The notes: generated from the letters alone by a model not told the origin. A stretch of DNA of 64,000 bases from an uncultured bacterium (GCA_964421245.1 CAYQVW010000009.1:1404-65403); one strand, 5' to 3'. Positions 14,198 to 59,699 are shown, numbered from the stretch's first letter. Numbers and translations are program-made.

Positions 14198-14286
14198 TGC
14201 AGAGTACCTGTATATCAGTTTATCAGTATATCGGTATTTTTTCAAGAATGGCAGATTTAGCCAATTTTATCGTATAATTATCTATA

Positions 14287-28132: not shown

Positions 28133-28905
28133 TAAACTCCTCTAAGAATAGTATTCTTTATGTGTTTTTTAGAAATCTCAACCATTTTTTCAAGTTGATC
28201 TCTTTCGTAAGGCTTAACTTTTACCAAAGACGGATCAAGGGTCTCTTTTGGAACAAATTGCTGCAGGGCAAATTTTTGTGCTCCAGCAATTGATTTTGCC
28301 AAATCCTCAATATCTTTTTCATTAAGTAACGTTGGAACAACTGTGGTTCTAAATTCATAAGGTAATCCTGATGTCATGACAATTCTAATACTTTTCATAA
28401 TATTGTTTATGTCTGTCTTTATTCCAGAAAGCTTATTATATCGCACGTCCAACGGTCCTTTAAGATCCATTGCAATATAGTCAACTAAATTATCTGCAAT
28501 TGCTCTCTGAATAACATCAGGAAATGCCCCATTTGTATCTAACTTGACCCTAAACCCTTGACCCTTGACCCTAATAATAAATTCAAATAGTCCATTCTTC
28601 TCGTGCAAACAAGGTTCTCCTCCGGTTAAACAGATGCCGTCAATAAAATCCTTATGTTCTTTCAGATAACTTTCAATTTTTTCAATAGAAATAAGATCAA
28701 ATTGCTTTGGATCTTCTATCAAACCAGCATTATGGCAAAATGGGCAGCGAAAATTACAGTTTGGCGCGTAGACAACTGCACAAACCTTACCATCCCAATC
28801 CAAAAACGATGTTTCTTGAAACCCTCTAATTTCCATAATTTCTCTCACCAAATATGGCCGTTCCAATACGAACCAGATTCGCCCCTTCTTCAATCGCGAC
28901 CTCAT
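28132..28905 (-). CDS. Radical SAM activase-like protein (NrdG/PflA-like fold)
   Basis: FLDWDGKVCAVVYAPNCNFRCPFCHN (CX3CX2C), with the preceding buried-substrate motif typical of glycyl-radical-enzyme/anaerobic RNR activases. Contains a (CTTGACC)n insertion. Confidence 0.55.
   Translation of the reverse strand: MRSRLKKGRIWFVLERPYLVREIMEIRGFQETSFLDWDGKVCAVVYAPNCNFRCPFCHNAGLIEDPKQFDLISIEKIESYLKEHKDFIDGICLTGGEPCLHEKNGLFEFIIRVKGQGFRVKLDTNGAFPDVIQRAIADNLVDYIAMDLKGPLDVRYNKLSGIKTDINNIMKSIRIVMTSGLPYEFRTTVVPTLLNEKDIEDLAKSIAGAQKFALQQFVPKETLDPSLVKVKPYERDQLEKMVEISKKHIKNTILRGV
28543..28575. repeat. (CTTGACC)n heptamer tandem array inside radical SAM gene
   Basis: cttgacc ctaaacc cttgacc cttgacc; encodes IRVKGQGFRVKLD on the gene strand. 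Confidence 0.8.
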
Positions 28906-29464
28906 AAGAAGAAGACATGCCCATTGATAATATTTCTAAATTTCCAATTTGATCAAACACTTTCTTTGTTTCGACAAAATATGGGCGGACAACCTCTGGA
29001 TTGTCAGAAAATGGCCCCATCGTCATCAAGCCCTTTATTTTAACATTTTTAAGTTCAGAAATTTGTTGGATTAACTGATCAACTTTTTCAGGATACACCC
29101 CGGCCTTCTGTTCTTCTCGCCCACTATTAACCTCAATCAAAATCGGCATTACTTTGCCAATCTTTGCACATTGCTTATCAATCTCTTTAGCTAGCTTCAT
29201 TGAATCAACGGTCTCAATCATATCGAATAACTGAACTGCTTTCTTAACCTTGTTGGTTTGTAAGTGTCCTATAAAATGAACCTTGACCCTTGGAACTTGC
29301 CCCTTGACCCTATCCCATTCCTGAACATAATTCTCCCCTACTATAGTAATACCAGCCTCAATGGCCTCTTTAATTTCTTCAGGAGTTCTGGTCTTTGCAG
29401 CAGCAACTAATTTTACATTGGGAGGTAACTCGGATAATATCTTTTTAACGTTTTCTTTGATCAT
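28826..29464 (-). CDS. yggS: YggS-family pyridoxal-phosphate homeostasis protein (alanine racemase N-terminal-like barrel)
   Basis: KLVAAAKTRTPEEIKEAIEAGITIVGENYVQE...HFIGHLQTNKVK...ILIEVNSG...GLMTMGP matches YggS/PLPHP. Confidence 0.8.
   Translation of the reverse strand: MIKENVKKILSELPPNVKLVAAAKTRTPEEIKEAIEAGITIVGENYVQEWDRVKGQVPRVKVHFIGHLQTNKVKKAVQLFDMIETVDSMKLAKEIDKQCAKIGKVMPILIEVNSGREEQKAGVYPEKVDQLIQQISELKNVKIKGLMTMGPFSDNPEVVRPYFVETKKVFDQIGNLEILSMGMSSSYEVAIEEGANLVRIGTAIFGERNYGN
29282..29309. repeat. (CTTGACC)n-like array inside yggS
   Basis: cttgacc cttggaa cttgccc cttgacc; encodes DRVKGQVPRVKVH. Confidence 0.75.
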
Positions 29465-30407
29465 TTGATATCATTTCTAATAAAATCAATGCAACTTGCT
29501 TGCTATAGCGTTTTGAGATATTAAGCGGATCTAAACCGGGCCAACCCCAACAAGCGGTGTGTATAACACCTTCTACTTCATAAGAAATATTATCCAATGA
29601 AGTCGGATGCATGGACTCGATTGGGGACTGGCCGGCAGGATTAGCAACTAAATCCGTGATAACCGCACCCTTTTTAAAAAGCTTGAGCATCTCTTTTTTA
29701 ATTAAAATCACTTTACCACGCTTATCCATTGGCCAATTAAGACCGTTAACCAAAATATCACACCCTGGAATATGTTTTTCCATCTCATAAATATCTTTTT
29801 TATTCAAAATAGTTACTTTTGCAAACTTTCTGGCGGCCGCCTTGATCGCCCCATAAGCAACCATGCCATACCCCATTACTTTGACAACACATTTTTCAGG
29901 ATTTCCCTTCTGCCTCGCCGGCTCGCCTCGCGAAGCGGGCAGGCGGGTCCATAATTCAAAACCCTTCTCCATTCCAAGCCGCCCTGTATCCTCTAATGCC
30001 TCAATTCTTCTTCTTCCCAAAGAATCCTTAATTTCTCCCATTGAAATACCATCAATCTTGTATCTATCAAGAAGTTTCTTTAGCTCCGGTTGTCCCGGCA
30101 AGTGAAGCATAGATAAAATAGAGCTTCCCGGCTTCATTAATTTTAATTCTTCTTCATTCGGCTCTTTTAGCCTAACAACAAGATCGCAAGAATAGACCTC
30201 TTTACGAGAAACAACAGATGCTTTGGCCTTCTTATACTCTTCATCGCTTACACCAATTCCCAAACCAGCCCCTTCCTCAACAAAAACATTGGATATTCCT
30301 TTTATATCTTCTGGAAGAAGAATTACACGTTTTTCCTGAGGACGATTTTCAGAAGCGACACCGATTTTCATTTTAGACATCCATATGAGTGAATTTTTTT
30401 TCTTCAA
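29445..30407 (-). CDS. AlaDH/PNT-family NAD(P)-dependent dehydrogenase (alanine dehydrogenase / carboxyethyl-ornithine synthase-like), ~310 aa
   Basis: N-terminal KIGVASENRPQEKRVILLPEDIKGISNVFVEEGAGLGIG matches the AlaDH/PNT N-domain. VKVMGYGMVAYGAIKAA is the Rossmann motif. Carries a 46-nt GC-rich in-frame insert (LPASRGEPARQKG). True start may be the internal MKIGV. Confidence 0.55.
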   Translation of the reverse strand: MKKKNSLIWMSKMKIGVASENRPQEKRVILLPEDIKGISNVFVEEGAGLGIGVSDEEYKKAKASVVSRKEVYSCDLVVRLKEPNEEELKLMKPGSSILSMLHLPGQPELKKLLDRYKIDGISMGEIKDSLGRRRIEALEDTGRLGMEKGFELWTRLPASRGEPARQKGNPEKCVVKVMGYGMVAYGAIKAAARKFAKVTILNKKDIYEMEKHIPGCDILVNGLNWPMDKRGKVILIKKEMLKLFKKGAVITDLVANPAGQSPIESMHPTSLDNISYEVEGVIHTACWGWPGLDPLNISKRYSKQVALILLEMISNDQRKR

Positions 30408-31419
30408 AATTGCGGTAAATATACTTCTTTCCTTTTTTCTTAACTAAATAATCTGGGGAAAGAGGTATTTTTCCACCACCATTTTCAATATCTAAAATAA
30501 GTTTTGGGACAGCTAATCCAGATGTATGGCCTATAACCTTTCTCATTATTTTCAAAGCCTGATCAATTGAAACCCTAAAGTGATGAGACCCTTCAACAGC
30601 ATCTGGAATATAAATATAATATGGACGAACTAATATTTTGAGTAATTTCTCATTAAGCTCAATTAAAGTCTTTGGGTTATCATTTACCCCTTTTAGCAAA
30701 ACAGACTGATTCCCCATTAAAATCCCATGATCTGTTAGCAGTTTACAGGCTTTCGTCGCTTCTTTGGTTATTTCTCGAGGATGGTTAAAATGGGTCAAAA
30801 AATAGAGTGGTTGATATTTTTTGAGCATCTTACAAAGCTTGGGCGTTATTCTTTGTGGAAGAGTACAAGGTGTTCTCGAATCAATTCTAACAATTTCTAC
30901 ATGCTTTATCTTTTTTAACTCTTTAAGATAACGCTCTATTTTACTATCATCCAGAAGCAATGGATCTCCTCCAGAAATAATAACATCCCTGACTTTCTTT
31001 TTTGCTTTGATATACTTTATTGCTCTATTAAAATCTTTATCTGACAAAGTGGCATACTTCTTCCCAACTTTTCTCTTTCTAGTACAAAAGCGGCAGTACA
31101 TTGCACATTTATTTGAGACCAAAAGCAAAACACGATCCGGATAGCGATGAACAACCCCAAAAATCGGGGTATGTTTCTCTTCATTCAGTGGGTCTAAATT
31201 ACCATCTCTATTAATAATCTCTTCTGAATCGGGAATACACTGTTTCCAAATCGGATCATTTTTTTTCTTAATTAAACTCAAATAATAACGATTAACTAAA
31301 AGCGGAAAACGATGAGCAACCTCATCAATATCCCCATTTCCAATCTTTTTAGGATCAATAATTGCGTTTTTAAATAGTTTTTTCCAGTCAGACACCAATT
31401 CCTCCAATAATCTGTTCAA
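30373..31419 (-). CDS. kamA: KamA-family radical SAM aminomutase (lysine 2,3-aminomutase / EpmB-like)
   Basis: CAMYCRFCTRKRKVG is the KamA-family CX3CX2C cluster. 348 aa is in the EpmB/KamA size range. Confidence 0.75.
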   Translation of the reverse strand: MNRLLEELVSDWKKLFKNAIIDPKKIGNGDIDEVAHRFPLLVNRYYLSLIKKKNDPIWKQCIPDSEEIINRDGNLDPLNEEKHTPIFGVVHRYPDRVLLLVSNKCAMYCRFCTRKRKVGKKYATLSDKDFNRAIKYIKAKKKVRDVIISGGDPLLLDDSKIERYLKELKKIKHVEIVRIDSRTPCTLPQRITPKLCKMLKKYQPLYFLTHFNHPREITKEATKACKLLTDHGILMGNQSVLLKGVNDNPKTLIELNEKLLKILVRPYYIYIPDAVEGSHHFRVSIDQALKIMRKVIGHTSGLAVPKLILDIENGGGKIPLSPDYLVKKKGKKYIYRNFEEKKFTHMDV

Positions 31420-32206
31420 GCTCGCTCACATTTACAAATCTAGCATAACGCTTTAAAAGATTAAGGGTAAATTTAATTTTGAACCGACTTATTACTGAAG
31501 CAAATTCAAAAGTGTGAGCAAGTACCGATAGAATAATCATACCTTGCTTGGAGTCTTTCTTCAAGCGCCTAATCTTCTTCCAAATACTGTATATAGACTC
31601 TTTCTCAATATAAAACCCAAGCGGAATTTCGATAACCTTACTATTACCTTCCCTTCTATGATCCTGATAGTCTAGTTGATAATAATTAGTGGGAGCATTT
31701 CTCCAATCAGAGACCAAATTGTTCCCATGAAACAAATGGCGTCCAGGATTACACGAAAAATCAAACTTAATTTTATTTTCTTCAAGAATTGGAATAGTCT
31801 TTGGAGAAAAAGCCAGATACCCACCACGATAAGAAAACGGATTTAATCCTGCCTCCCTCAAGCCCTTTGTAAAACTAGAAATCGCTCGCTTCATCTTTCC
31901 AGAATCATTAAAATAATATGCCCTGCGCGGATCATCTTCGTGGCAGTGAACCCCAACATTCCCATTGTTATTTTCGATTTTCTTCCAACACTTAATAAAC
32001 TCCGGTCTTAAGAAAAAGTCGCGAGCTCGTGGAGAAGTATGAACAAAATGAATGAATTTTCCATCTATAACTGATGAGGCAAGCTCAATCTCTTTATCAA
32101 TCAGAGGAAGCAACGTCGATAGATTAGGCCTTCTCTCCTCTTCAGACAGGTGGGGATTGAAATATTCATCCCAATCCCCATCAATTGTAAAAACTAAATT
32201 GATCAA
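31388..32206 (-). CDS. Hypothetical protein, first gene of the operon
   Basis: 272 aa, no clear motifs (FTIDGDWDEY, VGVHCHEDDP). Overlaps kamA start by 32 nt. Confidence 0.35.
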   Translation of the reverse strand: MINLVFTIDGDWDEYFNPHLSEEERRPNLSTLLPLIDKEIELASSVIDGKFIHFVHTSPRARDFFLRPEFIKCWKKIENNNGNVGVHCHEDDPRRAYYFNDSGKMKRAISSFTKGLREAGLNPFSYRGGYLAFSPKTIPILEENKIKFDFSCNPGRHLFHGNNLVSDWRNAPTNYYQLDYQDHRREGNSKVIEIPLGFYIEKESIYSIWKKIRRLKKDSKQGMIILSVLAHTFEFASVISRFKIKFTLNLLKRYARFVNVSELEQIIGGIGV

Positions 32207-32211
32207 TAAAC

Positions 32212-33498
32212 CTAATTACCAGAATAGAGATTCAAACTAACTTCTGTTCCAGTTAGATCTTGAGTAGTAGTTCCATCGGCCACGGTAATCGTTGTTGGAG
32301 AAGCTACTCCACCCGCTCCATATGCACCATAATAATCACCGGAAGAGAGCACACCATTGCCGTCAACATCAAGGAGAAAGACGGCAATAAAGCTTCCAGA
32401 AGGAAGGCCCGAACTATTTATCGATAAACTAGAAAATGATCCGGCATCAGCTTGATTAACTCCAAGCGTTAACATCGGGGGACCACCAGCCGAATAAGAT
32501 GCCAGACTTGAATAAGCATCGGCAATCAAAGGAGTACTACTGCTTAAGGTAATAGGAGTAGATACTGAAGCGGTAAAGTCAACTGATCCACCTCCCTTAG
32601 GTGTCTGTGCTCCTCCATCACCACCTTCAAGAGCAGATATTGTAAAAGCTGGAGATAGTGATGTTGTTACCGTCTCTTGAGCTACTACTGTTACAGGAGA
32701 AATAGTTCCATCCCAAGGCTCCGCTCCGCCAGCTGTATAACCCTTATCACCTATCTGTGGAGGGCTATGTCCCGACTGTTCTGTAATAAACTCGATTGCC
32801 ATAAAATACCATGTGCCCGGTTTAAGCTGCATAGTACCAGTAGCGGTACCATCTCCATTATTGGTCATTGTAGAAACAAAAGAAGGGCCAGCTTGCTGTT
32901 GAAATGAAGCAAACGCACCTAGCTCCACCTTTTTTCCAGCAGTAACCCCAGAAGCAATATTAGCAGTAATGGTACCTATTTTGGAAGTATCAACAACCAC
33001 ATTCTCACCGGTGAAGTGAAAAAGAGGAGGATTATCCGGAAAATAAGTAGCAAAGGTTGTTCCTGAAATATCTGATGCTGACATATGTGCATTAAAAAGC
33101 AATTTTCCACCAGAATAAATAATCGGTTTAATATTCTCAACAATCTCACTAAAATCTTCATTCCCACCACTTTTCGCCTTCAATATTGGCAATATCTCCC
33201 TCTCGTTGGTCCCTTGAACAAATTTGATCGAGGAAACTGTAAAACCAATCTGGCTGTAGCTTCCTGCTGGTGGAGGAGTAATTGTAATTGAAGACCCAGA
33301 AGTACTCTTGGCGGCTGAACTCAAGATGTTTACTACATCCGAGGAAGTGGTCAATGAAATCCAAGATGAATTCTCATCCGTCCTTATTTTAAAATCACTA
33401 AAGGTAACCTGCAGCTCAAGGTCACTCGGAAGGGTTGCTGCGAAAGAAGAAAACGCGAACAGAGATAATAAGATTAATACTAGAAAAAATCTTTTCAT
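32212..33498 (-). CDS. Secreted Ser/Thr/Gly-rich protein with C-terminal Ca-binding-like DxDxNG motif
   Basis: Signal peptide MKRFFLVLILLSLFAFSSFAA with GGAGG RBS 7 nt upstream of this Met; ORF-track start at 33528 is probably too long. DVDGNGVLSSGD near C-terminus. Confidence 0.5.
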   Translation of the reverse strand: MKRFFLVLILLSLFAFSSFAATLPSDLELQVTFSDFKIRTDENSSWISLTTSSDVVNILSSAAKSTSGSSITITPPPAGSYSQIGFTVSSIKFVQGTNEREILPILKAKSGGNEDFSEIVENIKPIIYSGGKLLFNAHMSASDISGTTFATYFPDNPPLFHFTGENVVVDTSKIGTITANIASGVTAGKKVELGAFASFQQQAGPSFVSTMTNNGDGTATGTMQLKPGTWYFMAIEFITEQSGHSPPQIGDKGYTAGGAEPWDGTISPVTVVAQETVTTSLSPAFTISALEGGDGGAQTPKGGGSVDFTASVSTPITLSSSTPLIADAYSSLASYSAGGPPMLTLGVNQADAGSFSSLSINSSGLPSGSFIAVFLLDVDGNGVLSSGDYYGAYGAGGVASPTTITVADGTTTQDLTGTEVSLNLYSGN

Positions 33499-33511
33499 TT
33501 CTATGCCTCCC

Positions 33512-33664
33512 CTATTCTTCAATAGCATATGGGCTAATGTTTGTTATACCCATAGAATTGCTATCACTCGACGAAGTAGTATTCTGCTTTCCGCAACCAG
33601 AAAAAACAAGGAAACCGACTATCAACGCAATAACCCCGAACAGAAGCACCCATTTCAACTTCAT
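33512..33664 (-). CDS. Small lipoprotein (50 aa) not in ORF track
   Basis: MKLKWVLLFGVIALIVGFLVFSGCGKQNTTSSSDSNSMGITNISPYAIEE. Lipobox VFSGC. Strong RBS AGGAGGG 7 nt upstream of ATG. Confidence 0.5.
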   Translation of the reverse strand: MKLKWVLLFGVIALIVGFLVFSGCGKQNTTSSSDSNSMGITNISPYAIEE

Positions 33665-33739
33665 AAATAATCCCTCCTACTTAAGATTTGATCAATTTTA
33701 GGCTCAAAATCAAATATTGTCAATATGTTATAATTTTAT

Positions 33740-34378
33740 ATGGCTTCCTGCAAAATATGTTCTAATAAAACAAAAAAGATCTATGACAGCCAATACGATC
33801 AAAACTACTATTATTGTGACAATTGTGAGTTTATCTGCTTAGAAGAAAACAAGATAATTTCTTCCGCTCAAGAGAAAAAAGAGTATCAATTTCATCAAAA
33901 CAATTTTGAGAACGATGGTTATGTAAATATGTTTCGCAAATTTATTGATAAGGCTATTCGACCACATAAATCAAGTATAAAAACTGCTCTAGATTTTGGT
34001 TCCGGTCCTGGACCAGTGCTTGCGGAACTCCTAAAACAAGAAGGCTTTGAAACAGATGTCTATGATAAGTATTTTTCACCAGAAAAAATTCATTTAAACA
34101 AAAAATATGACTTGATTACAGCAACCGAGCTCTTTGAACATTTAAAAGCCCCCCTCCCTACCCTAAAACTCCTAAAATCCCTTCTAAACAAAAATGGGAT
34201 TATAGCTATCATGACCCTCTTTCATAAAAACGATATTGAAGAATTTAAAAAGTGGTGGTATCGACGCGATTCGACTCATATCTCTTTTTATACTCCAAAG
34301 ACATTTGAATGCATGGCAAACCTATTAGGCATGAAAACTAAAATAGTGGACCAAAAAAACATCTGTCTGCTACAATAG
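33740..34378 (+). CDS. Class I SAM-dependent methyltransferase with N-terminal Cys4 zinc ribbon
   Basis: CKICSN...CDNCEF zinc ribbon. LDFGSGPGPVLAELL methyltransferase motif I. Confidence 0.6.
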   Translation: MASCKICSNKTKKIYDSQYDQNYYYCDNCEFICLEENKIISSAQEKKEYQFHQNNFENDGYVNMFRKFIDKAIRPHKSSIKTALDFGSGPGPVLAELLKQEGFETDVYDKYFSPEKIHLNKKYDLITATELFEHLKAPLPTLKLLKSLLNKNGIIAIMTLFHKNDIEEFKKWWYRRDSTHISFYTPKTFECMANLLGMKTKIVDQKNICLLQ

Positions 34379-34381
34379 GAC

Positions 34382-35191: not shown

Positions 35192-35215
35192 AGAATATTC
35201 TGAATTCTGCCTAAA

Positions 35216-36244: not shown

Positions 36245-36326
36245 TATTTTATCCTCTAATGTATTATCGTATAAATAAAGCTAAAATTTCATAGAATAAG
36301 AATTAAGATGAAGAATTAAGAAAAAA

Positions 36327-36399
36327 TTGGGGGAGAAGGGCTCGAACCCTCATTGGCGGAATCAGAATCCGCAGTCCTACCATTAGACGATCCCCCACT
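36327..36399 (-). tRNA. tRNA-Gln (anticodon CTG)
   Basis: Reverse complement TGGGGGATCGTCTAATGGTAGGACTGCGGATTCTGATTCCGCCAATGAGGGTTCGAGCCCTTCTCCCCCAA. Anticodon loop TTCTGAT as in bacterial tRNA-Gln. T-loop TTCGAGC. No encoded CCA. Confidence 0.8.
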
Positions 36400-36643: not shown

Positions 36644-36677
36644 AGCATTATTTTAACATACTTTGCTATAATAGGGC

Positions 36678-40431: not shown

Positions 40432-40439
40432 TGCCCTCC

Positions 40440-42089: not shown

Positions 42090-42137
42090 ACAAACATTAT
42101 ACATGAAATTTTTAGTACAATTTAACGATATATCCCT

Positions 42138-45848: not shown

Positions 45849-45867
45849 ATTATTAATTATAACACGA

Positions 45868-47432: not shown

Positions 47433-48139
47433 AATAAATCTCTCATCTCCTTTACCGCTTGCCGCATTCCAACAAATACAGCACGGGCAATAACACTAAA
47501 TCCAATATTTAATTCTTCGATTCCTGGAATTTTTATTATCGGTCCAACGTTTTCATAATCTATACCATGTCCGGCATTGATCCGCAAGCCAATTAGACGA
47601 GCTTTTTGAACAGCGGTCCCTATTTTTCTAATTTCTAGTTCCTGTTTTCTATTTCCAAAACAATTTGCATAAGCTCCAGTATGAATTTCGATAAAACGGG
47701 CACCAAGAACAGCCGCCTCTTCTACCTGCTCTAAATCTGGATCAATAAACAAGCTCACATCAATTCCTTTGTCTTGTAATCTATCAATAATCTTCTTGAC
47801 CCTTGACCTTTGACCCTTGACCCTTAAATCCAATCCACCTTCAGTTGTAACTTCCTGTCTCTTCTCAGGAACAAGTGTTACCATCTCAGGTTTGATTTTT
47901 AACGCAATCTTTAACATCTCATCAGTTGCAGCCATTTCTAGATCAAGACGAGTATTAAGTTCTCGAAGTCTTTTTACGTCTTTATCGTTAATATGTCGAC
48001 GATCTTCACGCAAGTGACAAACTATTCCATCAGCCCCTCCAGCAATACATTCTTTAGCTGCGAGAATTGGATCTGGAAAGGCTTCAAGCCTTGCCTGGCG
48101 AAGAGTTGCTATATGGTCAACATTTATTCCTAATCTCAT
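47429..48139 (-). CDS. pdxJ: Pyridoxine 5'-phosphate synthase
   Basis: MRLGINVDHIATLRQAR...GADGIVCHLREDRRHI...HTGAYAN matches PdxJ. Contains in-frame (CTTGACC)4 insertion. Confidence 0.85.
   Translation of the reverse strand: MRLGINVDHIATLRQARLEAFPDPILAAKECIAGGADGIVCHLREDRRHINDKDVKRLRELNTRLDLEMAATDEMLKIALKIKPEMVTLVPEKRQEVTTEGGLDLRVKGQRSRVKKIIDRLQDKGIDVSLFIDPDLEQVEEAAVLGARFIEIHTGAYANCFGNRKQELEIRKIGTAVQKARLIGLRINAGHGIDYENVGPIIKIPGIEELNIGFSVIARAVFVGMRQAVKEMRDLL
47795..47822. repeat. (CTTGACC)4 array inside pdxJ
   Basis: cttgacc cttgacc tttgacc cttgacc; encodes LRVKGQRSRVKKI. Confidence 0.85.
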
Positions 48140-48145
48140 ACTTAT

Positions 48146-49785: not shown

Positions 49786-50828
49786 ATAAACTCCTTTAGG
49801 GATTGTAAAATAATCTTATCCGGGACATCATCCCTAACTTTTACAGAGCCAATACCTTCTGGCAAAACCAATTTGAGCTTGCCCTTGCGCACTTTTTTAT
49901 CGATCATCATTGCCTTAAGAATTCTTTGAGGAGTAAGTTTTTTAACGTAGGTTGGCAATCCTAAATTTCTATTTATATTCCAAATTCTTTCAAGATCATT
50001 GGGATCAAGCATTCCCATTTTAAATGCAATAACACCTGCCGCAACCATTCCAATTGCAACCGCCTCACCATGAGCAATCTTTTTATATTTCAAAAGAGAT
50101 TCAATCGCATGACCAACTGTATGTCCAAAATTTAGAATCATGCGTACTCCCTTAAGTTCCTTTTCATCAGCTTGCACTACATCGGCCTTAATCGCTGCAC
50201 ATTCAAAAATAACCTCCTGCCATAAAGCTGGTGTTAACTTTTTGTTGTTTTCAAAAAGATCAAAAACTCGAGAGCTTCTAATAACACCGTACTTTATAAT
50301 TTCAGCAAGTCCGTTCCTAATCTCCTTTTTGGGCAGGGTCTTTAAAGTATCAACATCAATATAAACAAGTTTTGGCTGATAAAAAGTACCAATCATATTC
50401 TTACACTTTGGATGATCTACCCCGGTCTTTCCACCAATTGAAGCATCTACTTGAGCAAGGAGCGTTGTCGGAACTTGTATAAAGTTAACTCCACGCATGT
50501 AGGTTGAAGCCACAAAACCAGCCAAATCTCCAATCACCCCACCACCTAGTGCAATAATTGTTGCATCTCGAGAAATTTTCCATGAAGCCAGTTTATTCCA
50601 AATCTTTTCAGCAGAAGAAAGAGTTTTGTATCTCTCTCCTCTAGGAATAATGATTTTTCTTGCCCCTTGGCACTTGACCCTTGACCCATAAAGTTTATTA
50701 ACCAATGGATCGGTAATAATTACAACCTGTTTTCCATCTACATATTGAGCAAGCTTTCCCAATATTCCACGATCAATTATAATATCGTAACTTCTATCTT
50801 TTAAACCGACTTTTATTCTTTCGCCCAT
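49776..50828 (-). CDS. aroB: 3-dehydroquinate synthase
   Basis: [46 protein letters not shown] and HGEAVAIGM metal-binding region match AroB. Contains heptamer-repeat insertion. Confidence 0.9.
50659..50686. repeat. (CTTGACC)n-like array inside aroB
   Basis: cttgccc cttggca cttgacc cttgacc; encodes [11 protein letters not shown]. Confidence 0.75.
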
Positions 50829-51313: not shown

Positions 51314-51323
51314 AACTTAATAC

Positions 51324-52145
<822 letters not shown>

Positions 52146-52929: not shown

Positions 52930-54231
52930 TTAAATTACATCCTGAGAAACGAGATCTTCATAAGTCTCTCGTTTCAATATTAAATTTGCTTTGCCATTGT
53001 TTACCAGAACCATCGCCGGACGAGGAACCCTATTATAATTTGAAGCCATAGAATGCCCGTAAGCCCCGGTACACATTACAGCCAGTATATCACCTTCAGA
53101 AATTTCTGGAAGTGAACATTCTTTGATTAAAATATCGCCAGATTCACAGAAACGACCTGCAACACGGTATGGCTGTAGAGACTTGCCATGGCAAGTCTCT
53201 ACAGCCTTGTTTACAATTATCGCATCATATTTTGCGTCATACAAAATCGGTCTTGGATTATCAGACATTCCACCATCAATCATTACATACTTTCTTATTC
53301 CAGGAATATCTTTTACATATCCAATTGTGTATAACGTAATTCCGGCTGGAGAGATGATTGATCTGCCCGGCTCAAAGATAATCTTTGGTGAAGCTATATT
53401 TAGCTCTTTGGCTTTTTCGCGAACACGATCTATAACCTTTTCCAATAATTTGGAAACAGCCTCCGGCTTTTCGTTGATATAGGTAACTCCCCATCCACCA
53501 CCAAAATCCAACTCTTTTGCTTCTAGGCCAGTAGCATCTTTAATCTGTTTGGCGTAATCAAAAAGAACATCCGCTTCAGTTACAAATGGATCGATATCTA
53601 AAATCTGAGAACCGATATGAGTATGTAATCCAACAAAATTTATATGTTTAGACTTTGCAACAAATTTTGCGGCGGGAAGAACTTTGTCTTTTTGAATCCC
53701 AAATTTAGAATCAATCTTTCCAGTTTGGATAAATTCGTGAGTATGGGCTTCTATCCCTGGATTTATACGAAATAAAACATTTACACTTTTATTAAGTTTA
53801 TTAGTAACCTGATCAAGATCTCTTAATTCCTTAATACTATCTGCAACAATATTAACACCAGAAGAGACCGCTTCTTCTAATTCTTTTACCGGTTTATTAT
53901 TACCGTGGAGATAGACTTTGGACATATCAGCATTAGCCTTTTTCGCAGTATAAAGCTCGCCACCAGACGAAACATCAAGCCCCATCCCCTCTCCACCAAC
54001 CAACTTCAAAATAGAAATATTACAAAGCGCCTTACTAGCGTATATAACTAACGAATTAGGATACTTTGACTTTAGGGTTGAAACATACTGCCGACAATTA
54101 TGTCGGAGGGTCATTTCGTCAATAACATAAAGAGGGGTTCCAAATTTATTGGCTAAGTCGACACAGTCTACTCCACCAACTTCAAAATGGCCCTTATCGT
54201 TTACTTTTGCTGTTAACGGCTTATTGCTCAT
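52930..54231 (-). CDS. lysA: Diaminopimelate decarboxylase (fold III PLP decarboxylase)
   Basis: N-terminal alanine-racemase-like barrel with YASKA-type PLP-lysine context, GGG loop, C-terminal beta domain, characteristic of LysA. Ornithine/arginine specificity not fully excluded. Confidence 0.7.
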   Translation of the reverse strand: MSNKPLTAKVNDKGHFEVGGVDCVDLANKFGTPLYVIDEMTLRHNCRQYVSTLKSKYPNSLVIYASKALCNISILKLVGGEGMGLDVSSGGELYTAKKANADMSKVYLHGNNKPVKELEEAVSSGVNIVADSIKELRDLDQVTNKLNKSVNVLFRINPGIEAHTHEFIQTGKIDSKFGIQKDKVLPAAKFVAKSKHINFVGLHTHIGSQILDIDPFVTEADVLFDYAKQIKDATGLEAKELDFGGGWGVTYINEKPEAVSKLLEKVIDRVREKAKELNIASPKIIFEPGRSIISPAGITLYTIGYVKDIPGIRKYVMIDGGMSDNPRPILYDAKYDAIIVNKAVETCHGKSLQPYRVAGRFCESGDILIKECSLPEISEGDILAVMCTGAYGHSMASNYNRVPRPAMVLVNNGKANLILKRETYEDLVSQDVI

Positions 54232-54244
54232 TACTCTTTACTAA

Positions 54245-55801
54245 TTACTCCTTAATTAATTTATACTCCATCGAATCAACCAGTGCCTGCCAACTTGCCT
54301 CAATTACGTTAGTTGAAACACCGACTGTTCCCCATGAGCCTTGCTCATCCGCAGACTCAATAATAACACGAACTTTTGCCGCTGTTCCAGCCTGAGAATC
54401 GAGCACTCGAACTTTATAATCTGTAAGTTTAACCTGTTCTATTTCTGGGAAATGTTTTTCTAAAATACCTCTTAGGGCATCATCTAAGGCATTAACCGGA
54501 CCATCACCCTCTCCGGTTGATTCCACAATTTGTCCTTTTACTTTCAACTTAATTCTGGCTTCAACAAAAGTTGGTTCTGATCCTGATTTTGTATTTTGTA
54601 TTTGATAATCAACCAATTCAAAATGAGGCTTTGCTCTTTTAATAGTTTTCTTGACCAATAATTCAAATGAAGCCTCACCTTCTTCAAACTGGTATCCTTG
54701 GTGTTCTAAGTTTTTCAAAATCCTAATTAATTCTTTTGTTTCGGGAGTATCTTTCTTAATATCTACTCCATAATCTTTTGCTTTATAGATTAGATTAGAA
54801 ATACCAGATAGTTCGGAAACTGTTACCCTTCTTTCATTTCCAACCAATTCAGGCTTTATATGTTCGTATGTTTCTGAATTCTTTAGAACTGCCGAAACAT
54901 GAATCCCACCTTTATGAGAAAAAGCAGAACGGCCCACAAAAGGATGATTAGCCGCTTGTGAAAAATTAGCAATTTCAGCGATATGATGAGAAAGTTCAGT
55001 GAGTTTTTTTAGAGAAGCAGAACTAACCCACTTTTTATTCATCTTTAGTTGAAGATTTGGAATTATTGAAGTTAGATCCGCATTGCCGCAACGTTCTCCA
55101 TAGCCATTAATTGTTCCTTGAACATGAACTGCGCCAGATTCAACAGCAATAATAGAATTTGCAACACCACATCCAGAATCGTTATGTGCATGTATCCCTA
55201 ATGGGACACGAATTTTGGGTTTAATCTCCCTAATTATTTCTCCAATTTCATTTGGGATAGTCCCACCGTTAGTGTCACATAGAACTAAATATTTTGCTCC
55301 ACCTTTTTCTGCAGCCCTCAAACATTTAACGGCATATTCGGGATTGGCCTTATATCCATCAAAAAAATGTTCGGCGTCAAATATAACTTCTAGTTTTTTA
55401 GATTTTAAATAGGCTAGAGTATCTTCAATAATTTCCAAATTCTTATCTAAACTAATCTTAAGGGCCTCTTTTACATGAAAATCCCAACATTTGCCAAAGA
55501 TAGCGGCAACTTTAACTTTTGACTCTAGAATTGCCTTGATCGATGGGTCATCTGCTACTTTTAACTTTGCACGACGAGTTGATCCAAAAGCGGTTAATTT
55601 TGAGTTTTTTAGTTTGACTTTTTGAGCTTTCTTGAAAAATTCGATATCTTTTGGATTAGAGCCAGGCCAGCCCCCTTCTATATAATGAACACCAAAATCA
55701 TCGAGCAAACGAAGGATTTTTAGCTTATCTTCTACTGTAAAAGAGATGCCTTCTGTTTGTGCTCCGTCACGCAGGGTTGTATCAAAAAGGGTAATGGTCA
55801 T
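54245..55801 (-). CDS. cimA: (R)-citramalate synthase (LeuA-like)
   Basis: ITLFDTTLRDGAQTEGISFTVEDKLKILRLLDDFGVHYIEGGWPGSNPKD matches the CimA clade of the HMGL-like family. HAHND catalytic motif present. Confidence 0.75.
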   Translation of the reverse strand: MTITLFDTTLRDGAQTEGISFTVEDKLKILRLLDDFGVHYIEGGWPGSNPKDIEFFKKAQKVKLKNSKLTAFGSTRRAKLKVADDPSIKAILESKVKVAAIFGKCWDFHVKEALKISLDKNLEIIEDTLAYLKSKKLEVIFDAEHFFDGYKANPEYAVKCLRAAEKGGAKYLVLCDTNGGTIPNEIGEIIREIKPKIRVPLGIHAHNDSGCGVANSIIAVESGAVHVQGTINGYGERCGNADLTSIIPNLQLKMNKKWVSSASLKKLTELSHHIAEIANFSQAANHPFVGRSAFSHKGGIHVSAVLKNSETYEHIKPELVGNERRVTVSELSGISNLIYKAKDYGVDIKKDTPETKELIRILKNLEHQGYQFEEGEASFELLVKKTIKRAKPHFELVDYQIQNTKSGSEPTFVEARIKLKVKGQIVESTGEGDGPVNALDDALRGILEKHFPEIEQVKLTDYKVRVLDSQAGTAAKVRVIIESADEQGSWGTVGVSTNVIEASWQALVDSMEYKLIKE

Positions 55802-56616
55802 GTAGAAATTATATCACAAATCTCTTTTATAACCCAATCAGGGGTTGAGGCACCAGCAGTTATACCAATTTTGTCTTTTCCAGTAATAAATTCTGGTTTT
55901 AATTCGTCTTTTGTTTGTATCTGATAAGTAGGTGTTTTAGTTTCTGAACACAATTCAGTTAAACGTTTTGTGTTAGCGCTCATCTTGTCTCCAATCACCA
56001 GTACAACATCAACTTTTCGCGCAAGTTCTATAGCAGCTTTCTGTCTCTTTTGGGTCGCACCACAAATTGTCTTATGAACTATTAAATCTTTAACTTTTGA
56101 TTGGAGTATTTGAACAATATTATTAAAATTCTCGTCAGATTGGGTAGTTTGTGCCACTACTCCAACTTTTTCTTTAAGTTGAATTCTATCAAGCTCTTCT
56201 GCGGTTGAAATAACGATCCCCTTCCCCTCAGACCATCCCCGAATACCCTTTACTTCTGGGTGATTTTTATCTCCTACAATGATAAGTTGAAAGCCTTTTT
56301 TAATTACCTCTTTTGCCAATTTTTGCGCACGCTTTACCCACGAACAAGTCGTATCAATTATTTTTAAGTTCTTCTTCTTTGCAGCACTATAAATAGCTGG
56401 TGATACTCCGTGTGCAGAAATTAGTAGTGTCTCTCCATCTTTAATACTCTCAACATCCTTAATAACCTTAATCCCCTGTTGTTCTAGTTTTTCAACCACC
56501 TGCTTATTGTGAACAAGATTACCAAGCATATATATGTTGGAATACTTCTTTGCTTGTTCAAAAGCAGCCGAAACCCCCTCACAAAAACCAGCTGTCTCTG
56601 CTACAAATATTTGCAT
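55798..56616 (-). CDS. ispH: 4-hydroxy-3-methylbut-2-enyl diphosphate reductase
   Basis: FCEGVSAA...GNLVHNKQVV...ICGATQKRQ (Cys ligands of the 4Fe-4S cluster) match IspH/LytB. Confidence 0.85.
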   Translation of the reverse strand: MQIFVAETAGFCEGVSAAFEQAKKYSNIYMLGNLVHNKQVVEKLEQQGIKVIKDVESIKDGETLLISAHGVSPAIYSAAKKKNLKIIDTTCSWVKRAQKLAKEVIKKGFQLIIVGDKNHPEVKGIRGWSEGKGIVISTAEELDRIQLKEKVGVVAQTTQSDENFNNIVQILQSKVKDLIVHKTICGATQKRQKAAIELARKVDVVLVIGDKMSANTKRLTELCSETKTPTYQIQTKDELKPEFITGKDKIGITAGASTPDWVIKEICDIIST

Positions 56617-56700
56617 AGCAATTTTATTTTAACATACTAAATCCAATATAGCTGAAATTTTCTATTTTTTTGATCGATAAGTATATAGGAGGAAAAAGCA

Positions 56701-57378
56701 ATGACAATAATAAGAGGAAATCAACCGATAACACAATTATGGAGAAACAGCGCACGTGTTAATCTTAGAAAAAGCGGAAACTTAGAAAGAAATATAGCAG
56801 CTGCTAGTCAAAGAAAAGTAATGAGAGAATGTTTAGACTTACCCACTATCTCCACTCCGATGGTAGAACTAGAAATTGGAGAAATTTTGCAAAAGGCAGC
56901 ACCAAGCGACAGTGAAGTAAGAAGCATGTTAAACAGAACCAAAAAGATCTATCGAGGAGTGACGGGGCTCACTTTGTCATTTGATAATAATCTATTAGCA
57001 AACATACAAGTAATGCTAAGGATGCCCCAAAAAATTATGGATAAGAGTTTTTCCCACAGAGACCAAATAGACAAATTGAGAGAAAAAGCAGAAAAAATTC
57101 AAGACTACATCCATATACTGGTACTTAGACAGCGACTAGACGAAGGTGGAGAATATTTAAAGACTAAAGTCCCGGTTAGAAAAGTAGGCCTCTTAAGGGC
57201 TTCTTATTTGACCCAACGCCACGCTAGAGAAATATTTGGAAGGGATGAATTGAGGGTCGCCTTAAGTCTAGGGCGTGGCAATGAATCCAGTGGCACAGTA
57301 GGCATCGACACATTTATACATCACTCCGAACCAGGTGTTGCAAAAGCCCTTGAAAAAAGGCTTGATGCTCAGACTTAA
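56701..57378 (+). CDS. Hypothetical 225-aa protein, no recognisable domain, atypical codon usage
   Basis: Plus-strand gene flanked by minus-strand ispH and leuS. Arg (aga/agg) and GC-richer codons. RBS GGAGG 8 nt upstream. Confidence 0.4.
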
Positions 57379-59699
57379 CCAATTACAATATTAACCATCT
57401 TCTTTGGAATGTAGATAATTTTGCGGATTTGTTTGCCTGTAGTAAATTTCTGAACCTTTTCTGACTTTTGCGCTAATTCTTTGATTTGATCCTCTTTAGC
57501 ATCAGCCGAAACAGTAATAGCATCTCTTCTCTTTCCGTTTACAGAAACTGGAATCTCAATCTCTGACTCAACAATCATCTTTGGATCAAACTTCGGCCAT
57601 TGCTGTTTATGAATTGAATCTTTGTGGCCAAGCTCCTTCCATAGTTCTTCTGTTGTAAAAGGTGCATAGGGGGAAAGCAGGATAAGAAAAGTGTCTAGGG
57701 TCAAGGGGCAAGGGTCAAGTTTTGCACTATTAATAGTATTGAGTAATTCCATCATCTTAGCAATCGCAGTATTAAACGAAAATCTTTCTATGTCCTCTGT
57801 AACGGCCTTAATTGTTTGATGTAATTTTTTGGATATTTGAATTTTAGATTTAGAATTTGTTTCGGATTTCGGATTTCGTGCTTCGGATTTCTCTGAAACG
57901 AGTCTTCTAACGCGGTTAAGGAATCTATATACTCCTTCAACTCCCTTATCCGACCATTCCAGTTCGCGCTCAGGAGGAGCTGCAAATAAAATAAATAAAC
58001 GAGCACTATCTGCTCCATACTTTTTAATAATATCGTTTGGATCAACAACATTCCCCTTCGACTTTGACATCTTAGCCCCATCTTTTATAACCATTCCTTG
58101 AGTAAAAAGGTTAGTAAAAGGCTCGTCACTTGAAACTAAACCAAGATCGTAAACAACTTTAGTAAAAAAACGAGAATACAACAAATGCAAAATAGCATGT
58201 TCAACGCCACCAATATATTGATCAACCGGCATATACTTATCAACTTTATCTTTTGCGAAAGCTTGTTTAGAATTTTTTGGGTCACAATAGCGAAGGTAAT
58301 ACCAGGACGAACAAATAAAGGTATCCATAGTATCGGTCTCTCTCTTGGCAGAACCACCACACTTTGGACATTTAGCATCACTAAAAGATTTTGAAGATGC
58401 TAACGGAGACGTCCCCTCGCCAGTAAATTTAATATCTCGCGGAAGCTTAACCGGTAAATCTTTGTCGGCAACAGGAACTGTCCCGCATTTATCGCAATAC
58501 ACAATTGGAATAGGAGCTCCCCAATATCTTTGGCGAGAAATCAACCAATCACGCAGCCTAAAATTAGTCTTCCACTCCCCCACTCCTTTTTCCACCAACC
58601 AGTCGCCAATCTTTTTCGACCCTTCGGAACTTGGCAAGCCATCAAACTGCGCCGAGTTAACCATTGTGCCTTCGTCAACATAAGCCTGTTCGCTGTTCCC
58701 GCCTTTTATAACTGTTTTAACTGGTAATTTATTTTGCGTAGCAAACTCGAAGTCCCGCTGATCATGTGCTGGAACTGCCATTACCGCACCAGTTCCATAT
58801 TCCATTAATACATAATCTGATACCCAAATCGGAATCTTCTCATTATTTGCAGGATTAATTGCATAGGCACCGGTAAAAACACCATCCTTAGCTATTTTTT
58901 CTTCTCTCTCGCTCAAAGTCTCATGCTTTACTTTTTCTTGATACTCTTTTACCATCTTTTCTTGCTCAGTCCCTTTGGACAACTCTCGAACCATTGGATG
59001 CTCCGGCGCCAAAGTCATGTAGGTTACTCCAAACAAAGTATCTGGACGGGTCGTGTAAATAGAAAGTTGTGAGTCGTTAGTTGTCAGTTGGAAGTTAATT
59101 CGCACTCCCTTCGATTTCCCTATCCAATTCCTCTGCATTGTTTTAACATTCTCCGGCCAGCCAGATAGCTTATCTATATCCTTTAAAAGCCGATTGGCAT
59201 AATCGGTAATCTTTAAAAACCACTGCTCAAGTTTCTTCTTTTCAACCAAAGAATCACAACGCCAGCACTTTCCTTCTTTGACCTGTTCATTGGCCAAAAC
59301 AGTGGCACACCTTGGACAAAAATTTACTGAGGCAGCCTTTTTATAAGCTAAACCTTTCTTATAAAACTGAAGGAAGAGCCATTGAGTCCATTTATAATAA
59401 TCTTCTTTACAAGTTGTAACCTCTCGGTCCCAATCGTAGGAAATACCAAGTGATTTAATCTGTTTGGTCATATCTTCAATACACTTTTGTGTCCACTCTG
59501 CCGGATGGGTTTTGTGTTTAATTGCAGCATTCTCTGCCGGAAGACCAAAAGCATCCCAACCAATTGGGTAGATTACCTCAAACCCCTGCATTCTCTTGTA
59601 ACGAGCGAGGACATCACCAATAGCATAGTTTCGAACATGCCCCATGTGAAGATTTCCAGAGGGGTACGGGAACATTACTAAGTCATAATACTTTTTCAT
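57375..59699 (-). CDS. leuS: Leucine--tRNA ligase
   Basis: [33 protein letters not shown] (HMGH), KMSKSKGN. Contains two in-frame low-complexity repeat insertions. Confidence 0.9.
57696..57719. repeat. (GGTCAAG)n array inside leuS, opposite orientation relative to the gene
   Basis: tagggtcaaggggcaagggtcaag on plus strand; gene strand cttgacccttgccccttgaccc encodes LDPCPLTLD. Confidence 0.75.

Follow-up and report, generated by a model that had tools for sequence, protein, structure and literature searches.

We propose that the CTTGACC/GGGTCAA arrays found within six conserved genes of an uncultured bacterium are dispersed heptanucleotide simple-sequence repeats that overwrote coding sequence by heptamer-prone homogenization and were filtered by purifying selection, a reading to which we assign a probability of roughly 0.6. 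The window, by which we mean the whole 64-kb stretch of DNA that was analyzed, carries tandem arrays of 2.6–5 units at six loci within 30 kb, as found by TRF and by a pattern search (table 1). At all six loci TRF reports period-7 arrays (2.6–5 copies, 71–100% matches), which confirms the head-to-tail tandem arrangement, and the two-unit pattern CTTGACCCTTGACC, with up to two mismatches, yields 13 matches, compared with an expectation of 0.40 in 100 dinucleotide shuffles, none of which reached 13. The enrichment concerns the tandem form only. As a single copy away from the arrays, the heptamer was counted 7 times over both strands of the 64 kb, with about 5 occurrences expected from base composition, and on these counts a single motif of the uptake-signal, Chi, or HIP1 type was rejected. 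The first-pass annotation had reported heptamer arrays in six conserved genes, and the TRF and pattern counts bear this out. Its gene names (NrdG-type radical SAM activase, YggS, PdxJ, AroB, PanB, and LeuS) are correct by family assignment, its array peptides, that of leuS included, are correct on translation, and it placed the arrays correctly, except that by TRF those in yggS and leuS extend a few bases further. It had also named base composition as the yardstick for heptamer frequency, and within the window the tandem form lies far above chance.

The arrays belong to a wider excess of heptanucleotide repeats. Period 7 is the most enriched repeat period in the window, with 10 arrays versus 1.6 in codon shuffles (maximum 4), whereas periods 8–12 show only a 2–4 fold excess. 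Since about 92.5% of the window is coding, the genic location of all six GGGTCAA arrays is no evidence of targeting (the probability of six out of six by position alone is about 0.63), and the 9 of 10 period-7 arrays that lie in genes are likewise what random placement would give. The nearest proteins to those encoded in the window come from Candidatus Saganbacteria, WOR-1, and Margulisbacteria, and the host is a non-photosynthetic member of the Saganbacteria. An assembly artifact was rejected as the source of the arrays, the sequence recurring in independent JGI, ENA, and Logan assemblies at 99.97–100% identity. Neither unit number nor unit sequence varies among six independent assemblies, all of them clonal and hence a weak test of polymorphism. 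A phase-variable contingency locus was also rejected, the hosts being housekeeping enzymes and this same weak test revealing no variation.

Table 1. Heptanucleotide arrays in the window.
Feature	Position	Strand	Remarks
(GGGTCAA)n array, ~4.3 units, NrdG-type radical SAM activase gene	28543..28575	-	Sense strand; encodes IRVKGQGFRVK; TRF 28543-28572
(GGGTCAA)n array, ~5 degenerate units, yggS	29277..29311	-	Sense strand; encodes RVKGQVPRVKV; TRF
(GGGTCAA)n array, 4.4 units, 91% matches, pdxJ	47795..47825	-	Sense strand; encodes LRVKGQRSRVK; TRF
(GGGTCAA)n array, ~4 units, aroB	50659..50687	-	Sense strand; last unit GGGGCAAG = conserved Gly-Ala-Arg; TRF
(GGGTCAA)n array, 2.6 perfect units + TACCAAG + TACAAG, panB	51660..51687	-	Sense strand; conserved YKYQG then SRVK; TRF 51660-51677
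(GGGTCAA)n array, ~4.4 units, leuS	57689..57719	+	G-rich strand antisense; sense reads CTTGACCCTTGCCCCTTGACCCTA, encodes LDPCPLTLD; TRF
Second leuS heptamer array, different unit TCCGAAA (sense strand), 4.6 units	57860..57891	-	TRF
ATTTTGT x2.6 heptamer array in leuA-type gene (54245-55801, minus strand)	54586..54603		TRF
TAGGAAA x3.7 heptamer array in APH-family phosphotransferase gene (4788-5735, minus strand)	5420..5445		TRF
AGAATTA x4.6, sole intergenic heptamer array, adjoins 3' end of tRNA-Gln (36327-36397, minus strand)	36293..36322		TRF

Alignment with homologs shows that none of the six array segments is an insertion; rather, the residues they encode align with ancestral residues, and pre-existing coding sequence has been overwritten. 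The radical SAM segment aligns without gaps to PflA and, in an alignment of 18 sequences, to 17 homologs, and matches the homolog consensus at 6 of 10 positions (consensus RRIKDLGFQVKLDTNG, window IRVKGQGFRVKLDTNG). Relative to solved homologs the array region is shorter by 3 aa in PanB, 3 aa in YggS, and 7 aa in AroB; that of LeuS is 6 aa shorter than in Neisseria gonorrhoeae LeuS, and that of PdxJ, a loop whose length varies among relatives, is 2 aa longer than in Escherichia coli PdxJ. In four related genomes AroB is collinear and equally long, whether the array is present or absent. Thus, the earlier suggestion that the repeats were inserted in frame does not survive the ortholog alignments, which give no net insertion in any of the six genes and length differences of −7 to +2 aa. 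Essential residues are retained as apparently degenerate units, namely GF in the radical SAM protein (the conserved Gly-Phe is encoded by GGGTTTA), YKxQG in PanB, GAR in AroB, and GQR in PdxJ. All surviving arrays have a total length that is in frame, and their edges grade into native codons. They lie where the native peptide already resembles the one encoded by the heptamer, either at a helix end, Gly turn, or strand start of an α/β fold or in a variable loop. In AF2 models the aroB array covers the end of helix 41–50, loop 51–56, and the start of strand 57–60, the radical SAM array likewise runs from a helix end through a turn to a strand start, and the array residues of both have pLDDT values of about 90–97.

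The recurrence of one peptide in unrelated enzymes had been noted before. The peptides are correct, but their recurrence is not a finding in itself, since a 7-nt repeat read in any frame yields a single cyclic heptapeptide (GSRVKGQ). Ohno's principle reportedly states as much for repeats of oligomers with a length not divisible by three, which give the same periodic peptide in all frames; it fully accounts for the RVKGQ-type peptides here, although it is arithmetic and neither a genetic element nor a mechanism. The orientation effect described in the first-pass annotation is real: the G-rich strand is in the mRNA for five of the six arrays in the window, and of the arrays within long open reading frames of other genomes, 30 are in sense orientation and 1 is antisense. 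GGGTCAA contains no stop codon in its three frames, whereas TTGACCC contains TGA, which explains both this bias and the TGC found in the leuS array where a perfect array would read TGA. It could still be argued that the enzymes converged at the protein level, each needing an RVKGQ-like motif (a Lys-Gly helix cap followed by a strand) of which the DNA similarity is a by-product, and the native consensus is indeed heptamer-like in the radical SAM protein (R[IV]K..GF.VK), PanB (G[YF][KR]VQG[RK]G), and AroB (G.[RK][VI]KG.GA[RK]). The codons contradict this. Every RVK within the arrays is written AGGGTCAAG, that is, AGG-GTC-AAG, although AGG makes up 16% of Arg, GTC 11% of Val, and AAG 34% of Lys codons, which gives this combination a probability of about 0.006 per RVK triplet; the three RVK triplets outside the arrays use other codons. 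Because every array RVK is written in the same rare codons, the array signal is at the level of DNA. Moreover, the leuS copy is oppositely oriented and specifies an unrelated peptide, and relatives with other peptides at the array sites have equally intact enzymes. We therefore regard convergence as barely tenable.

The reading first put forward was that of a tiny selfish or mobile element, or of a footprint left by some site-specific process, with in-frame insertion as in Rickettsia palindromic elements (RPEs). RPEs are palindromic elements of 100–150 bp that add 30–50 residues. The arrays share with them the occurrence of a repeated DNA family inside conserved protein genes, at structurally permissive positions and with the frame kept. 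However, the comparison fails on extra length and on palindromy, for the arrays add nothing and are non-palindromic tandem 7-mers. The presence of GGGTCAA at many dispersed loci and in unrelated phyla would suit a mobile element, as would array regions 5 aa longer than in solved homologs in Geobacter MurG and a deltaproteobacterial TrpE and a near-constant GQGSRVKGQG block in the interdomain linkers that hold most intragenic arrays of other phyla. In the window, by contrast, none of the six genes shows a net insertion, the radical SAM segment being ungapped and 60% identical to the family consensus. Inspection of array flanks, by eye and not systematic, revealed no termini, target duplications, or inverted repeats; only weak secondary structure and no strong hairpin are predicted for the array sequences; and there are no transposase- or reverse transcriptase-like genes among the family-assigned ORFs (~1.6–29.5 kb and 37.4–62.6 kb). 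Finally, units differ between lineages at one orthologous site, as would be expected if an array evolves but not if one element inserts repeatedly. We consider a mobile element very unlikely.

Orthologous sites in relatives appear to record both turnover and homogenization of arrays. The panB site carries heptamer arrays of four different units in five lineages, namely GGTCAAG in the window and in L010, CAAACTT in L007, AAGTGCA in L008, and TCAAAGA in L130. In L010 the array extends into the conserved PanB motif through a whole-codon change from TAC to GGT with length unchanged. The distant PanB of L151 has a near-perfect (GGGTCAA)4.6 at the same motif, where the array was reached independently, and its relative L152 has an imperfect period-7 version with G-tracts at the same site. 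The radical SAM site of L133 holds a GGGTTAA-like array with seven differences from the window, of which four are synonymous and lead toward GGGTCAA. The aroB array occurs in the window and in the distant L008 but not in L010 or L007, which are closer, the yggS array is absent in L132 and L133, and the closest relative (L010/L132) has none of the radical SAM, yggS, and aroB arrays.

We infer that slippage or a gene-conversion drive, filtered by protein tolerance, is the most likely cause of the arrays. A heptamer-prone process would create adjacent similar 7-mers, which would then be homogenized toward one unit without net change in length by replication slippage or misaligned repair within the array, together with short-patch gene conversion within and between arrays, and purifying selection would keep only those outcomes that leave the enzyme functional. 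Slippage within arrays does not by itself explain why one unit is common to six separate genes, and, for conversion between loci, arrays of only 20–30 bp approach the minimum length for homologous recombination.

Several known systems resemble these arrays. The STRR (short tandemly repeated repetitive) heptamers of cyanobacteria reportedly include CCCCAGT, TTGGTCA, and CAACAGT (Mazel et al. 1990, cited in PMC4692102). STRRs occur in heterocystous cyanobacteria, with several unit families per genome; they are mainly intergenic and often long, and are also found inside a functional gene, in the variable helix of RNase P RNA, a case to which PMC2858038 alludes. The likeness lies in the tandem 7-nt units, in the dispersal of several families at many loci, and in the fact that Cyanobacteria are a sister lineage of the host; the GGGTCAA unit itself forms long arrays in Calothrix, Nostoc, Tolypothrix, Roholtiella, and Fischerella. 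In contrast, the arrays described here have 2.6–5 units, lie inside conserved protein genes of non-photosynthetic Saganbacteria, and use a unit that is not among the three named STRR units; the window is not predominantly intergenic in its period-7 arrays and has no HIP1 sites, unlike what would be expected of an STRR family in a heterocystous cyanobacterium. Haemophilus USS, Neisseria DUS, and cyanobacterial HIP1 are short motifs that accumulate in genes by molecular drive and are hugely enriched as singletons. As with these motifs, GGGTCAA would spread into coding regions by substitutions, preferentially where the peptide is tolerated, and brings in non-preferred codons, but its enrichment lacks the singleton form. 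Direct repeats of TAACTGA are known from Beggiatoaceae, Cyanobacteria, and Bacteroidetes, mostly just upstream of start codons and with a proposed role in translation (MacGregor 2015, PMC4679880). In both cases one specific heptamer forms short direct repeats in phyla that are phylogenetically scattered, without any obvious means of transfer, and stop codons within the repeat determine which orientation is allowed inside ORFs, although the present arrays are internal to conserved enzymes. G-rich heptamer repeats have been described with the units GGGAATC in Xanthomonas and GGGGA(C/T)T in Nostoc, are 89–93% intergenic, and are reportedly under-represented on ORF coding strands (Rehm et al. 2015, PMC4692102). 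The present arrays share with them a G3N4 unit (at least three G in GGGTCAA), dispersal, a modal four units in the cross-genome sample, the lack of a known function or dispersal mechanism, and loci that are not conserved between related species; they differ in that five of six lie on the ORF coding strand and only one or two of six keep four G-tracts. The proper comparison class is that of heptanucleotide simple-sequence repeats, which was already known (PMC4692102, PMC4679880), and not the RPEs. The GGGTCAA arrays are a coding-region variant of this class (STRRs and G-rich heptamers), and, in line with the first-pass annotation, which knew of no described element with this unit, the unit is absent from the literature searched.

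The G-tracts raise the possibility, which we hold to be unlikely, that the arrays are selected functional elements and that the protein merely tolerates a sequence kept by nucleic-acid selection, either as G-quadruplexes that form in the mRNA or on the non-template strand of the DNA and thereby modulate transcription, translation, or replication, or as tandem sites of a single-stranded nucleic acid-binding protein. All units contain a GGG tract on a strand that is mostly in the mRNA, and rare codons are kept in the arrays against the codon bias of the genome. A canonical four-tract motif with loops of at most 7 nt occurs once in the window (0.3 expected), namely in the radical SAM array, which is also the sole array that the ViennaRNA gquad model predicts to fold as a three-layer RNA quadruplex. 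At the PanB site L151 and L152 each keep five G-tracts despite different loops, and the four-unit mode matches the four-unit preference and the measured quadruplexes of the GGGAATC and GGGGA(C/T)T repeats (PMC4692102). Yet four intact G-tracts occur in only 1 of 6 arrays with loops of at most 7 nt and in 2 of 6 with loops of at most 12 nt (one of which reaches four tracts only through a 10-nt loop), and the remaining four, with three tracts or fewer, have no predicted quadruplex. Nor are the arrays conserved between relatives, as the three missing from L010/L132 illustrate; the panB site carries A-rich units without G-tracts in other lineages; and the G-rich heptamer repeats described earlier likewise have no known function (PMC4692102).

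GGGTCAA arrays are also found in Nostocales, Geobacter, Nitrospirae, and others, some of them within murD, murG, trpE, and metH. Four units is the modal array length across 119 loci of other genomes (43/122, versus 17 with three units), and of the 557 arrays in the other genomes that carry GGGTCAA, 244 have period 7, and more than 100 further units are represented. The presence of one unit in many phyla with a mode of four units is unexpected under neutral birth and death and hints at selection or a specific mechanism. We think it quite doubtful, beside the homogenization that we favor, that a sequence-directed process writes the same G-rich heptamer array in many phyla, with arrays persisting where GSRVKGQ is tolerated and four-unit arrays acting as quadruplex-type signals. 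Candidates for such a process are biased short-patch gene conversion and RNA- or DNA-templated repair, possibly with horizontal spread among co-occurring subsurface bacteria. If this were true, the sites tolerant of GSRVKGQ would include the G-x-R-V-Q-G-x-G motif of PanB and the interdomain linkers of MurD, MurG, TrpE, and MetH, and four-unit arrays would represent quadruplex-type regulatory or genome-maintenance signals inside genes.

The six heptamer arrays of the window lie where the first-pass annotation had placed them, and the peptides that it quoted are correct on translation of the host open reading frames (ORFs). With up to two mismatches allowed, CTTGACCCTTGACC has 13 matches in the window against 0.40 expected. 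The host genes likewise proved to be those named, that is, an NrdG-type radical SAM activase, YggS, PdxJ, AroB, PanB, and LeuS. Because independent assemblies from JGI, ENA, and Logan contain the DNA of the window at 99.97-100% identity, an assembly artefact can be ruled out. The closest proteins belong to Candidatus Saganbacteria, WOR-1, and Margulisbacteria, a nonphotosynthetic lineage that is sister to Cyanobacteria. In the radical SAM gene, whose longest ORF overlaps yggS (table), homologues are 234-236 aa long, a length that points to the Met at ~28836 as the true start and to only a short overlap.

Period-7 arrays and other features of the window; starts of the six GGGTCAA arrays are those of Tandem Repeats Finder.
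Feature	Position	Strand	Details
Array in radical SAM gene	28543-28575	-	GGGTCAA
Array in yggS	29277-29311	-	GGGTCAA
Array in pdxJ	47795-47825	-	GGGTCAA
Array in aroB	50659-50687	-	GGGTCAA
Array in panB	51660-51687	-	GGGTCAA
Array in leuS	57689-57719	+	GGGTCAA, G-rich strand antisense
Second array in leuS	57860-57891		TCCGAAA on sense strand, 4.6 units
Radical SAM ORF/yggS overlap	28826-28905		80 nt
tRNA-Arg(CCU)	51322-51397		Adjoins panB; end overlaps panB stop region
tRNA-Asn	14122-14196	-	
Repeat-rich intergenic region	13744-14290		~550 bp, around tRNA-Asn
TTTTCGTAAC repeat	13924-13979		5.5 copies
GIY-YIG-like ORF	~14290-14520		Small; follows repeat-rich region
Right-handed beta-helix ORF	5774-10624		1616 aa
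Repeats in beta-helix ORF	7575-8659		About three tandem copies of a 345-bp unit, 71-74% identity
ClpB/ClpC-type AAA+ chaperone	59696-62569		957 aa

All counts for the window refer to 64 kb of the host genome, with a G+C content of 36-40%, a steadily negative GC skew, and 42 of 56 genes on the minus strand. Since ~92.5% of this DNA is coding, the genic location of the arrays is uninformative on targeting: six of six arrays would fall in genes with P ~0.63, and we rejected gene targeting because coding density alone explains the pattern. The enrichment is confined to the tandem form, as the single heptamer occurs outside the arrays in 7 copies against ~5 expected from composition by our own arithmetic. 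Period 7 shows the strongest excess among periods, with 10 arrays in the window versus 1.6 in codon-shuffled controls (maximum 4). Four of these have other units, namely, TCCGAAA (in leuS), ATTTTGT, TAGGAAA, and AGAATTA. The peptide encoded by the leuS TCCGAAA array, which lies 140 nt away from the GGGTCAA array, is of low complexity and falls in a variable loop of the anticodon-binding region.

The ORFs and genes examined in the window have ordinary metabolic, signalling, and chaperone functions only, and no linked enzyme was found among them; the examination comprised family searches over ~1.6-26.5 kb, the NCBIfam names of seven genes, and precomputed domains over 37-58 kb. The beta-helix ORF probably encodes a repetitive surface protein. 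The first 60 residues of the ClpB/ClpC-type chaperone match the zinc-finger region of McsA, the arginine kinase activator, and the gene is predicted to be an unusual fusion. Dense short direct repeats surround tRNA-Asn, including GTATATCA (3.5 copies) and TTATCGTATAA (two copies) besides the one in the table; this region is probably not an origin, because the GC-skew switch is absent there.

The recurrence of one peptide in unrelated enzymes follows from the arithmetic of the repeat. A 7-nt unit has a coding period of 21 nt, so that GGG TCA AGG GTC AAG GGT CAA gives the same cyclic heptapeptide, GSRVKGQ, in all three frames. On the complementary strand (TTG ACC CTT GAC CCT TGA CCC), a perfect three-unit array has a stop in every frame, which explains why the G-rich strand is the sense strand in five of the six arrays. 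The leuS array, in the opposite orientation, has TGC where TGA would fall, since the complementary reading would otherwise carry a stop. The identity of the DNA, in contrast, is not a matter of arithmetic. Within the arrays RVK is always AGGGTCAAG, although AGG (16%), GTC (11%), and AAG (34%) are minor codons in the window, whereas the three RVK triplets outside the arrays are CGGGTAAAA, AGGGTAAAA, and CGGGTTAAG. Because the array codons are both identical and minor, the feature is a property of the DNA rather than a requirement of the proteins, and this codon identity contradicts protein-level convergence on an RVKGQ-like peptide, which we rejected. The GAR of AroB (GGGGCAAG) and the GQR of PdxJ (GGTCAAAGG) are native residues with codons similar to the heptamer unit. 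AGG, the rare codon that all arrays use, is read by tRNA-Arg(CCU), whose gene adjoins panB. For annotation, the case is a warning that a by-product of a DNA repeat can look like identical peptides in unrelated proteins.

The first-pass annotation had interpreted the arrays as recurrent in-frame insertions, akin to Rickettsia palindromic elements. This interpretation is not borne out, as the lengths of the six proteins contradict a mini-element and the array segments occupy ancestral positions. Relative to solved homologues, PanB, whose conserved YK(V)QG motif falls inside the array, and YggS each lack 3 aa, AroB lacks 7 aa against the best such homologue, and LeuS lacks 6 aa in both heptamer regions; PdxJ exceeds the E. 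coli protein of solved structure by 2 aa. The radical SAM segment aligns without gaps to the PflA structure (efiIRVKGQGFRVKLDTNG against dwfRACKKEGIHTCLDTNG). The same region is gap-free when 18 activases from Saganbacteria and Margulisbacteria are aligned, with the consensus RRIKDLGFQVKLDTNG agreeing with the window at 6 of 10 array residues. The AroB array region is collinear between the window protein and those of three relatives (82, 73, and 65% identity); an AroB query against a metagenome contig collection, from which the source contig is absent, found no relative. AlphaFold models (mean pLDDT 87 for AroB and 92 for the radical SAM protein, ~90-97 locally at array residues) place the array residues in predicted ordered parts of the fold rather than in floppy inserts: the end of helix 41-50, loop 51-56, and the start of strand 57-60 in AroB, and the end of helix 83-92, turn 93-95, and the start of strand 96-101 in the radical SAM protein. 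Taken together, these data show that the arrays are DNA-level repeats occupying ancestral positions and filtered by stop codons, frame, and fold.

Comparison with orthologous sites in relatives shows that arrays are gained, lost, and homogenized on the time scale of genus-level divergence. At the PanB site, five lineages carry heptamer arrays with four different units: GGTCAAG in the window and locus L010, CAAACTT in L007, AAGTGCA in L008, and TCAAAGA in L130. All units share an xxxxCAA core; they are alike within an array and different between lineages. In L010, the array extends one unit further into the conserved motif, turning YK(I/V)QG into HKGQG by exchange of a whole codon (TAC to GGT) with length unaltered. 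A GGGTTAA-type array, AGGGTTAAGGGGTTAGGGTTTAG, occupies the radical SAM site of L133, and of the seven differences between this array and that of the window, four are synonymous, each bringing the window to GGGTCAA; the unit GGGTTTA, common to both, encodes the invariant Gly-Phe of the activase. The AroB array is found in the window and in the distant L008 (AGGTCAAGGGTCAAGGGTCTAGGGGCAAGGG) and is absent from the closer L010 and L007. The closest relative (L010 and L132, from one sample) has the panB array and lacks those of the radical SAM gene, yggS, and aroB.

In a separate PanB subclade, L151 carries AGGGACAAGGGTCAAGGGTCAAGGGTCAAGGG, a near-perfect (GGGTCAA)4.6 at 3198-3229 that encodes TRVKGQGSRE, and its relative L152 has GGGGCTAGGGTCCAGGGACTAGGGACCAGGG at ~10400-10440, encoding ARVQGLGTRE. 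The L151 array is an independent recurrence of GGGTCAA at the PanB motif. In these two Margulisbacteria loci, the widely conserved PanB peptide G-[AT]-R-V-Q-G-L-G-T-R-E is encoded by period-7 DNA with five GGG tracts. A G3N4 heptamer array is compatible with the conserved PanB motif, and the site is struck repeatedly because the universal G-[YF]-[KR]-V-Q-G-[RK]-G is what such an array encodes. Further intragenic arrays lie at 1055-1086 and 15989-16023 of L008 (from a WOR-1 relative that has a contig of 1.67 Mb), with ACTTACG/ACTTAGT in a DAP epimerase gene and AAAAGTT in a ThiD/ThiE-type gene; the heptamer habit is therefore clade-wide, with units varying by gene and lineage. The PdxJ of L007 (13156-13605) has a 17-aa in-frame extra segment, ISRSAGSRDNNINIIEA, at the loop that holds the pdxJ array of the window. 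The DNA of this segment contains a GC-rich inverted repeat (CCCGC...GCGGG), and the segment may represent another type of small insert into a shared permissive site.

The unit also occurs far outside this lineage. The 17-mer GGTCAAGGGTCAAGGGT is present at at least 119 loci in GTDB genomes, none of those listed being Saganbacteria, although the listing shows presence of taxa, not counts. GGGTCAA was the sole heptamer scanned across phyla. The matches listed include Nostocales (Calothrix, Nostoc, Tolypothrix, Roholtiella, Fischerella), Geobacter, Meiothermus, groundwater Nitrospirae, Nitrospinota, and Deltaproteobacteria, as well as Omnitrophota and Bacteroidota, and several of these genomes carry the 17-mer on more than one contig. 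Among the matches listed (119 loci), 30 arrays in long ORFs are sense and 1 is antisense, and of 557 tandem arrays there, 244 have period 7; these include over 100 units besides GGGTCAA, many of them of G3N4 type. Intragenic copies occur as GQGSRVKGQG in MurD, MurG, TrpE, MetH, RibD, and others, for the most part within linkers between domains; the MurG and TrpE array regions are 5 aa longer than in solved homologues. The four-unit GQGSRVKGQG block is found in acetyl-CoA-synthetase-like, MurD, GH57, MetH, MurG, and TrpE genes of Nitrospirae, Deltaproteobacteria, and Geobacter MAGs (loci L036, L043, L062, L092, L094, and L111), and many MAGs with this block come, like the Saganbacteria lineage, from groundwater or subsurface samples. 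A viral origin was rejected, the 17-mer being on only 16 viral contigs, estimated to be near chance for a collection of the presumed size.

Comparison of these sequences leads us to propose a heptamer-favoring process that would homogenize adjacent near-matches to one unit, overwriting tolerant coding sequence. It would combine misaligned replication or repair within arrays with short-patch conversion within and between arrays, although conversion of 20-30 bp between different genes sits at the edge of recombination's reach. Direct evidence of slippage is absent, because arrays do not differ between the window and L001-L006 (99.97-100% identical) or between L009 and L008 (100% identical). We rank second the alternative that arrays are kept by selection for quadruplexes. 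The mode of four units across phyla (43 of 122 arrays, versus 17 with three, among the matches listed) hints at such selection or at a specific writing mechanism. However, quadruplexes fit just one or two of the six window arrays, and the arrays are not conserved among relatives; with a canonical motif in one of six, we rejected the quadruplex as the property uniting them.

Cyanobacterial STRRs are heptamers. Among long simple repeats, those with heptanucleotide units have been described as the most abundant in many prokaryotes, with polymerase slippage proposed as their cause (Mrazek 2007, as cited in PMC4692102 and PMC4679880). The repeats GGGAATC of Xanthomonas and GGGGA(C/T)T of Nostoc prefer four units and fold into quadruplexes in vitro; they are 89-93% intergenic without known function, and are reported to be under-represented on the coding strand of ORFs (PMC4692102). 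TAACTGA repeats occur in scattered phyla without a known means of spreading, and stop codons dictate their orientation in ORFs (PMC4679880). In the literature searched, GGGTCAA as a repeat unit returned only unrelated eukaryotic matches, in agreement with the first-pass annotation, which knew of no such element. The window arrays are thus a coding-region variant of a known, poorly understood class of heptamer repeats.

Whereas heptanucleotide repeats are regarded as an intergenic phenomenon, here they occur within essential genes, in a genome that is small and densely packed with genes. The case shows how such repeats live in genes: they overwrite rather than insert, solely where the heptapeptide suits the fold; the stop-free orientation alone survives; and essential residues are kept as "degenerate" units. 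The PanB, AroB, and radical SAM sites, with different units or no array by lineage, are natural experiments from which one could gauge in which direction and how fast the driving process runs, and tell molecular drive from quadruplex selection. The arrays are of moderate interest, chiefly because this series of orthologous sites could open the origin of heptamer repeats to testing.
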